In this document: positions 33-248 of the stretch, piece by piece
How the letters are laid out: the number at the start of each line of letters is the position of its first letter
How positions within the stretch are numbered: the first letter of the stretch is position 1
Source of the DNA: Escherichia coli
Lineage (GTDB): Bacteria > Pseudomonadota > Gammaproteobacteria > Enterobacterales > Enterobacteriaceae
Assembly (NCBI RefSeq): GCF_003334255.1
Contig: NZ_QOWU01000276.1
Direction: 5' to 3' (one strand)
Length of the DNA: 248 nt
Program-made: the position numbers and the translations under genes
The notes under the pieces: generated by a model
The model's database searches: none
Seen by the model: only the letters and a program-made list of their open reading frames with translations
Told to the model about the DNA's origin: nothing

Positions 33-248
33 GTACCCGGGGAAATTTACAGCATCGGAACATACATTATTGCCGCAATAATCCCGTATGCAACCGACAT
101 CGGCAGAACCTATCAGCCAGGAGAAACTGTACAGGGTTCACGCCTTAAGCGATGCGCCATAATCAAAGATACAAGCGGGAACTATATGAAAGCTAACACC
201 GATGGCATTGACGGCAAACTATCCTCAGTTCCGGGCTCATGGATGGTG
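3..248 (+). CDS. Internal fragment of a protein-coding gene, partial at both ends; collagen-like repeat-containing protein, possibly a phage tail-fibre-like structural protein
   Basis: Frame 3 has 82 sense codons and no stop across the whole window, which has roughly a 2% chance in random sequence of this composition. About 68% of first codon positions are purines (56 of 82), as expected for coding sequence. The reverse strand has early stops in all frames (frame 1 at codon 4, frame 2 at codon 21, frame 3 at codon 18). Frame 1 on the + strand has stops at 79-81 and 160-162. The translation is given in the summary. The product call rests only on the Gly-X-Y motif and composition, not on a search. 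Confidence 0.65.

Follow-up and report, generated by a model that had tools for sequence, protein, structure and literature searches.

EHEC prophages encode collagen-like (EPcl) proteins, of which EPclB is composed, in order, of PfN, PCoil, Col, Pf2, Col and a C-terminal domain (Ghosh et al. 2012, PMC3368898). EPclA was shown to form a trimeric dumbbell with a collagen stalk (PMC3368898). The gene to which the DNA analysed here belongs encodes a protein resembling EPclB in its order of PF08400, coiled coil, Col, PF03406, Col and C-terminal globular domain, and the two are also alike in being carried by lambdoid prophages in several copies per genome. An N-terminal PF08400 domain is present and two Gly-X-Y domains are split by the Pf2 repeat PF03406; the C-terminal PfC domain of EPclB (PF06820) was absent from residues 389-481 at E<=10, so the tip of the fibre is a different, uncharacterised module. 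A further difference from EPclB is that the tip found here is shared by P2-like fibres, some with a collagen shaft and some lacking one.

The locus also shares its position (gpJ, lom, stf, tfa) with the stf/tfa genes of phage lambda, and in both a single-base frameshift gives rise to two annotated ORFs. Hendrix and Duda reportedly described in 1992 that stf of lambda PaPa carries a frameshift which yields orf-401 and orf-314, and laboratory lambda is said to rely on gpJ alone. The split fibre gene described below closely parallels the frameshift in stf of lambda PaPa, although both the shaft, which is collagen-like here, and the tip differ from those of lambda stf. Unlike in lambda PaPa, the lesion found here is followed by an in-phase slippery heptamer, and the second fragment is merely 41 aa because the first in-frame ATG comes late.

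As in P2 gpH/gpG-type cassettes, the tip together with the 5′ part of tfa forms a mobile cassette, which is found in lambda-like and P2-like prophages; in contrast to those systems no DNA-invertase or alternative inverted cassette was seen adjacent to it, and the Tfa belongs to the DUF4376 type. The programmed -1 frameshift sites in mobile elements of E. coli (IS3/IS911, lambda G/GT, dnaX) are similar in having an in-phase X_XXA_AAG motif and a long -1 ORF, but here there is no conserved stimulator and no conservation among homologues, and the phase was made by a recent deletion.

Location of the window in a side tail fibre gene

The window, by which we mean the whole 248-nt stretch of DNA analysed, is the 3′ end of an stf-type side tail fibre gene with collagen-like repeats from temperate E. 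coli phages. It was 93-99.6% identical to tail fibre genes annotated in E. coli prophages and in eight temperate phage isolates, and a plasmid search with the window returned no match. The best match among complete RefSeq genomes was 99.6% identical (NZ_CP145707.1), with the window lying inside a 481-codon CDS (L001:4866-6311); the exact window was present in 0 of the 5,426 complete E. coli genomes in the RefSeq collection. The phase in L001, where (6001-4866) mod 3 = 1, places codon starts at window positions 3, 6 and 9, that is, in frame 3. Frame 3 had been predicted to be open through the region upstream of position 186; it is open across the whole of window 3-248, and the stop codon of the fibre CDS lies 63 nt beyond the window end.

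A single continuous CDS followed by a DUF4376/Tfa gene spans the window in 8/8 annotated records, lambda-like (gpJ-lom-stf-tfa) as well as P2-like, and its length where computed was 481-653 aa. Frame 3 was open to a common stop in 10/10 intact homologues, and the residues flanking Met441, GNYMKANTDGIDG, are invariant. The alignment to phrog_366 ('tail fiber protein') covered residues 1-472 in one stretch and therefore crosses Met441 directly. Gene order in lambda-like prophages is gpJ, lom, fibre and DUF4376 tail fibre assembly gene, so that the fibre gene has the lambda-type stf-tfa placement, after gpJ (and lom) and before a same-strand Tfa gene (DUF4376/phrog_1141); in P2-like prophages it follows the baseplate genes J and I.

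Pfam analysis of an intact 481-aa homologue gave phage_tail_N (PF08400) at residues 1-134 (E 2e-42), four matches to Collagen (PF01391) within 135-230 and 290-388 (including 290-342 and 333-388) and a Phage_fiber_2 repeat (PF03406) at 239-280; residues 389-481 gave zero Pfam matches even at E<=10. The order of the fibre protein is a PfN head, a coiled coil, a collagen-like helix, Pf2, a second collagen-like helix and a 94-residue C-terminal tip. On the + strand and in native frame 3, window positions 3-26 hold the final eight codons (QGPQGPTG) of the shaft's second Gly-X-Y run, as placed by the PF01391 matches and the frame check, and positions 27-248 are the first 74 of the 94 codons of the tip (RLVPGEIY...SWMV), as placed by blocks invariant in 12 homologues. 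The rest of the tip, CNEITSTNDNEGIGLFQRAY followed by the stop, lies immediately beyond the window.

The substitution pattern was uninformative as a frame test, as the 19 variable sites over the window were distributed 6/6/7 by codon position, with 16 non-synonymous and 5 synonymous changes, and did not single out frame 3. The frame-3 assignment is thus based on ORF integrity, domains and annotation and not on this pattern. One variant seemed to create a stop, but only because the double change CAG->TCG had been scored site by site.

A one-base deletion upstream of the window and the reading of ATG 186

The window was 100% identical only to six loci (L014-L019). One of these, L019, has the site of the lesion described here hidden by Ns and was excluded from the resolvable set. 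The other five (L014-L018), which represent four assemblies (GCA_000939255.1, GCA_040813195.1, GCA_958303715.1 and GCA_053955375.1), with one genome contributing two prophages, and differ in collagen length, read GCAGCTGTCCC where 12 other loci read GCAGCTGGTCCC. The difference is a 1-nt deletion (delta-G) in the second collagen run, around codon 318 and 184 nt before window position 1 (L001 position 5817; L014 about 3634), by which one G is lost from GCT GGT CCC. The ORFs of the delta-G loci have the normal N-terminus MTVRISGVLKDG (MTVRISG) and are native through GPAGAA, after which they read 88 out-of-frame codons, from VPKVMQARQGHEV to HRDHKGQPEGWYPGKFTASEHTLLPQ, and end at locus position 3896, which is window position 81. 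Window positions 1-81 on the + strand, read in window frame 1, are in this allele the last 26 codons and the stop (TAA, 79-81) of the out-of-frame tail, as seen in the ORFs of L014-L017. The remainder of frame 3 is identical to the intact C-terminus and the fragments are collinear with one intact protein; relative to intact homologues the allele has an indel, and its fragments together make up a single fibre protein. Between the lesion and position 186 frame 3 contains no ATG, the sole start-type codon being a TTG at -63, and gene finders call a 41-aa ORF from 186 because this is the first frame-3 ATG after the lesion.

The window is very probably the end of a frameshift-split fibre gene, in which an ATG that stands in databases as the start of a 41-residue gene belongs to a native gene broken by a one-base deletion upstream. 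With the G lost, ribosomes would read the 88 out-of-frame codons and terminate at TAA 79-81, leaving the tip untranslated, and the leftover frame-3 ORF from the first ATG (186) would be what is called as a 41-aa hypothetical protein. The expected product of the delta-G allele would be a tipless protein with a basic nonsense tail, and the phage would depend on gpJ alone, like laboratory lambda. From the parallel with lambda PaPa we infer that the broken allele makes tipless side fibres or none. In annotation terms, a single tail fibre gene is represented by the 41-aa 'hypothetical protein' and by a 398-425-aa 'protein' ending in 88 nonsense residues, both of them fragments. The fibre gene has been knocked out repeatedly, which recalls how laboratory lambda lost its side fibres.

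The original prediction had favoured a single continuous frame-3 CDS and had offered as an alternative a frame-1 gene ending at position 81 with a new gene starting at 186. The frame-1 reading HRDHKGQPEGWYPGKFTASEHTLLPQ with TAA at 79-81 is as it described, and so is the 104-nt spacer (82-185). The continuous CDS holds for the gene as it evolved, since intact homologues align across 186, and fails for the allele that matches the window exactly, which is frameshifted upstream. The two-gene arrangement is literally what is annotated in L014-L018 (an ORF to TAA 79-81 and a 41-aa ORF from 186), but it is not a real gene boundary: with the lesion 184 nt upstream of the window, the ORF end at 81 and the ORF start at 186 belong to fragments of one broken gene. 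Homologues aligning continuously across 186 had been proposed as refuting a separate start, and homologues ending at the position 81 stop as refuting the continuous CDS; both are found together because intact alleles show the one and frameshifted alleles the other. The 26-aa frame-1 peptide in the window had no family match. The longer frame-1 ORF did match phrog_10175, but the match was confined to collagen-coding DNA upstream of the window.

The start-like features of ATG 186 were compared with its surroundings. As predicted, frame 3 contains the ATG at 186-188, from which it reads MKANTDGIDGK; on the + strand, positions 186-248 correspond in the L001 frame to Met441 onwards of the intact 481-aa fibre and, from the public 41-aa calls, to the 5′ part of the remnant ORF in disrupted alleles. 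The GGGA noted upstream of it is present, but as position 176 is C it occupies 177-180 (+ strand) rather than 176-179; with 5 nt between it and the ATG, it is a weak Shine-Dalgarno-like run forming part of the codons Ser-Gly-Asn. The best anti-SD duplex between the 20 nt upstream of ATG 186 and the 16S rRNA 3′ end was -4.5 kcal/mol. In three related loci 30% of non-start ATGs (n=601) had a duplex as good or better, and annotated starts in the same loci (n=49) had a median of -7.3 kcal/mol, with 73% as good as ATG 186 or better. GGGA at a spacing of 4-10 nt preceded 2.3% of non-start ATGs, and the window contains 6 ATGs, of which 2 are in frame 3. Neighbouring true starts have clearly stronger signals (GGGAG for the fibre gene, CAGGAG for tfa). 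The motif is not conserved, being GGAA in 7/11 homologues (G179A, synonymous, plus G175A, Ser->Asn). The ribosome-binding signal at ATG 186 was neither above background nor conserved, and no + strand promoter or terminator was found in the 82-185 interval. The SD-like run is a chance occurrence, and ATG 186 is an ordinary internal Met in the middle of the tip, not a translation start shaped by selection.

Exact look-up of the 41-aa ORF (M186 to stop) in public protein sets retrieved six sequence variants (accessions including WP_432756448.1, STI57156.1 and EIH42186.1). It was not called beside an intact fibre gene in any case; 16/16 loci examined had a frameshift, deletion or N-gap upstream. 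Apart from delta-G, the ORF was called behind at least six lesions, namely a 31-nt deletion of window 148-178 (L012), 1-nt deletions at -158 and 83 (L013), an additional A near -6 (L021), a 14-nt deletion near -18 (L026) and multiple small deletions in each of L020 and L022; some of these may be long-read errors. It was also called after N runs in metagenome scaffolds. Alleles with other shifts (L021, L026) have their stop at a frame-2 TAA at window 146-148 (+ strand), as their upstream ORFs end at locus position 3963, which is window 148. In a P2-like prophage copy (L003) an IS element with an rve transposase is inserted at window 173/174, where homology to the window begins at 174 (L003 692) with the transposase gene upstream (no strand assigned), and the 65-aa protein P0011, considered as an independent small gene, is a remnant of this IS fusion. 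The chimeric N-termini of P0008 and P0009 come from single short metagenome contigs and are not interpretable.

A separate observation concerns the collagen-coding DNA itself. Off-frame translation of L001 5689-5883 (window frame 1) matched phrog_10175 ('unknown function') at E 5e-12, and this family was probably built from shadow ORFs or frameshifted fibre fragments. Family collections contain apparent off-frame collagen shadow ORFs.

These records bear on the other ways in which the window could be read. A genuine start at ATG 186, whether by internal initiation in the intact gene or as an independent 41-aa gene giving a C-terminal tip peptide, would fit the GGGA 5 nt before it and the protein accessions, a RefSeq WP_ number among them, held by the ORF. 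Next to the ordinary SD strength, a motif lost in 7/11 homologues, the missing + strand promoter and the confinement of every 41-aa call to positions behind a lesion, gap or edge and never beside an intact fibre gene, this reading is next to impossible; the 41-aa peptide also has no family match and would amount to the last 41 residues of a 94-residue domain in which the sequence on either side is conserved as a unit. The window might instead derive from an intact allele, with a plain continuous frame-3 CDS and no upstream frameshift, lying outside the collections searched. Most loci with this tip are indeed intact and L019 matches exactly with its lesion site in Ns, but delta-G is present in 5/5 resolvable exact matches and no complete genome carries the exact window, which makes an intact source quite unlikely. 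That the deletion is a sequencing or assembly error, the gene being intact in cells, is extremely improbable: collagen-like repeats are difficult to assemble, and N-gaps or multiple small indels resembling long-read errors do occur elsewhere (L013, L020, L022), but the same deletion at the same GG, outside any homopolymer run, is found in five loci from four independent assemblies, including two prophages of one genome. A frameshift-split fibre gene is the reading retained below.

Possible -1 slippage in the delta-G allele

The deletion turns GCT GGT CCC AAA GGT into GCT GTC CCA AAG GTG. By this change C_CCA_AAG, 2 nt downstream of the lesion, comes into X_XXY_YYZ phase, with the native frame as the -1 frame and open to the normal stop, so the 'untranslated tip' may not be absolute. 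A -1 slip on the heptamer (CCA to CCC, AAG to AAA) would put the ribosome back in the native frame and would give a 502-aa full-length fibre whose sole difference is Gly->Val, reading GAAVPKGDAGPAG and continuing to QRAY and the stop; the predicted trans-frame peptide is AAVPKGDAGPAGPR.

The frameshift would then be leaky, or a 'saviour', with some ribosomes slipping -1 on C_CCA_AAG to give mostly truncated tipless protein plus a little complete fibre. Beyond the altered sequence and its predicted trans-frame product, several points speak for this. Of the -1 heptamers measured in E. coli, C_CC.A_AA.G had the highest efficiency, 54% with the IS3 pseudoknot (Sharma et al., PMC4066793), and the correction of indels during translation is a recognised category in Atkins et al. 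2016 (PMC5009743). An in-phase NNNAAAG <=10 nt downstream would be obtained for only 11/1437 possible 1-nt deletions in the gene, GC-rich stems start 5-8 nt past the heptamer, and the allele, its tip intact, is found in four assemblies, one genome carrying it twice in separate prophages. However, the observation was made post hoc, and motifs lacking a stimulator act only 2-10x over a background of ~0.05% (PMC4066793). The stems 5-8 nt after the heptamer, at -11.5 to -35 kcal/mol, were not clearly more stable than shuffled sequences (z -0.3 to -1.8). Intact genes also have an in-phase C_CCA_AAG at residue 262, where it has no apparent function, the slip product would have its collagen triplet interrupted by Gly->Val, and the heptamer arrangement is not conserved across diverged homologues. 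Delta-G is moreover rare: it was seen in the five loci from four assemblies and was absent from 12 other loci, from 15/15 IMG/VR loci and from all JGI metagenome contigs, a rarity more in keeping with a recent lesion than with a recoding device that is maintained. We therefore consider rescue by slippage unlikely; if true, it would be a clean natural case of indel correction at the level of translation in a phage host-range gene.

The C-terminal tip, its distribution and neighbouring genes

By analogy with lambda stf/tfa, the P2 H/G systems and the EPcl study (PMC3368898), the tip is presumed to be a receptor-binding, trimerising knob, and we infer from the same systems that it binds a host receptor and needs Tfa. 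In such a side fibre the N-terminal domain would sit on the tail, followed by a trimeric coiled-coil and collagen stalk and by a C-terminal knob folded with the help of Tfa.

Alignment of homologues showed variation in the tip (+ strand) to be concentrated in few codons, with up to four states each and almost no synonymous change. Hypervariable codons lie within window 78-92, at 78-80 (I/L), 81-83 (I/T/A/G) and 90-92 (A/T/I), and further along at 132-134 (Q/S), 159-161 (I/L), 171-176 (TS/AS/EN) and 216-218 (K/N/R/I). Within genome pairs compared for both, the dN/dS ratio was 0.6-1.9 for the tip and 0.18-0.20 for the neighbouring tfa, with tfa pairs involving L006, L009 and L011 left out on account of a different start codon which puts them out of register. 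This pattern in the sequences suggests diversifying selection on receptor-contact residues of the tip.

Relatives of the tip were found within a narrow range. A word-indexed search returned only sequences of >=89% identity, and an exhaustive search of 1.84 billion representatives with HMMER gave no credible relative below 89% identity, its only additions being P0015 and P0016; these two are long repetitive proteins matching in 7 short stretches each and were judged repeat-inflated and spurious. A tblastn search of the tip against 50,697 phage records found just the eight PhiR phages, on which the literature search yielded nothing relevant. The PDB search with the tip gave nothing below E 0.8, and an AlphaFold2 monomer model built from the 12-sequence alignment had a mean pLDDT of 36 and was unusable. 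The tip is thus an uncharacterised, narrowly distributed and putatively receptor-binding module. Several co-resident prophages share it and it differs at only a few codons, which makes it a candidate determinant of host range.

Shafts both with and without collagen repeats carry the tip, the junction being at LVPGEIY. Tip DNA (window 40-248) is rare: of the 5,426 complete E. coli genomes 28 carry it, at 86 places in total, with a median of 3 and up to 8 copies per carrier. These copies lie in prophages of the lambda-like as well as the P2-like kind, so that a single tip/tfa cassette is common to prophages residing in the same genome. When tfa of the P2-like locus L008 (3328-3930) was compared with that of L001, L002, L007 and L010, the first ~85 residues were near-identical and were followed by strong divergence (dS about 0.5), which places a mosaic boundary within tfa and indicates that the 5′ part of tfa moves together with the tip.

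The start of tfa contains an A-tract (e.g., L001 6316-6352, L014 4131-4168), which is A6 in 12 loci and A7 in 18, and the resulting change of frame is absorbed by overlapping starts in ATGAATG, from which either MNVEKIS... or MWKKIS... is read. In L001 tfa is interrupted by the IS21-family element ISSso4 (7008-9315), and its 3′ remnant (9416-9553) is annotated as a pseudogene. A metagenome contig (L005, ENA ERZ27246678 k141_79309, 641 nt, 1-641) has a fibre 3′ end and tfa codons 1-57 joined to a second, slightly different tip/tfa start, with the junction near 267, equivalent to window about 33-37, at a 10/11-nt microhomology CCGG(G/T)GAAATT; the join reflects either a genuine rearrangement between copies or chimeric assembly. 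An inverted match of 17/18 nt between window 229-246 and L001 6522-6539 (tfa codons 66-71, minus strand), ~275 nt downstream, was present in L001-L004 and is probably due to chance (E 0.029).

Further genes lie beyond tfa in the lambda-like prophages (L001 10235-11551; L014 7576-8126; L015 5408-6577 and 7410-8126): one for a YadA-like trimeric adhesin and, in several loci, also one for a 1,335-aa Peptidase_S6 (SPATE-type) autotransporter. These adhesin and autotransporter genes look like virulence-type cargo beside the fibre module.
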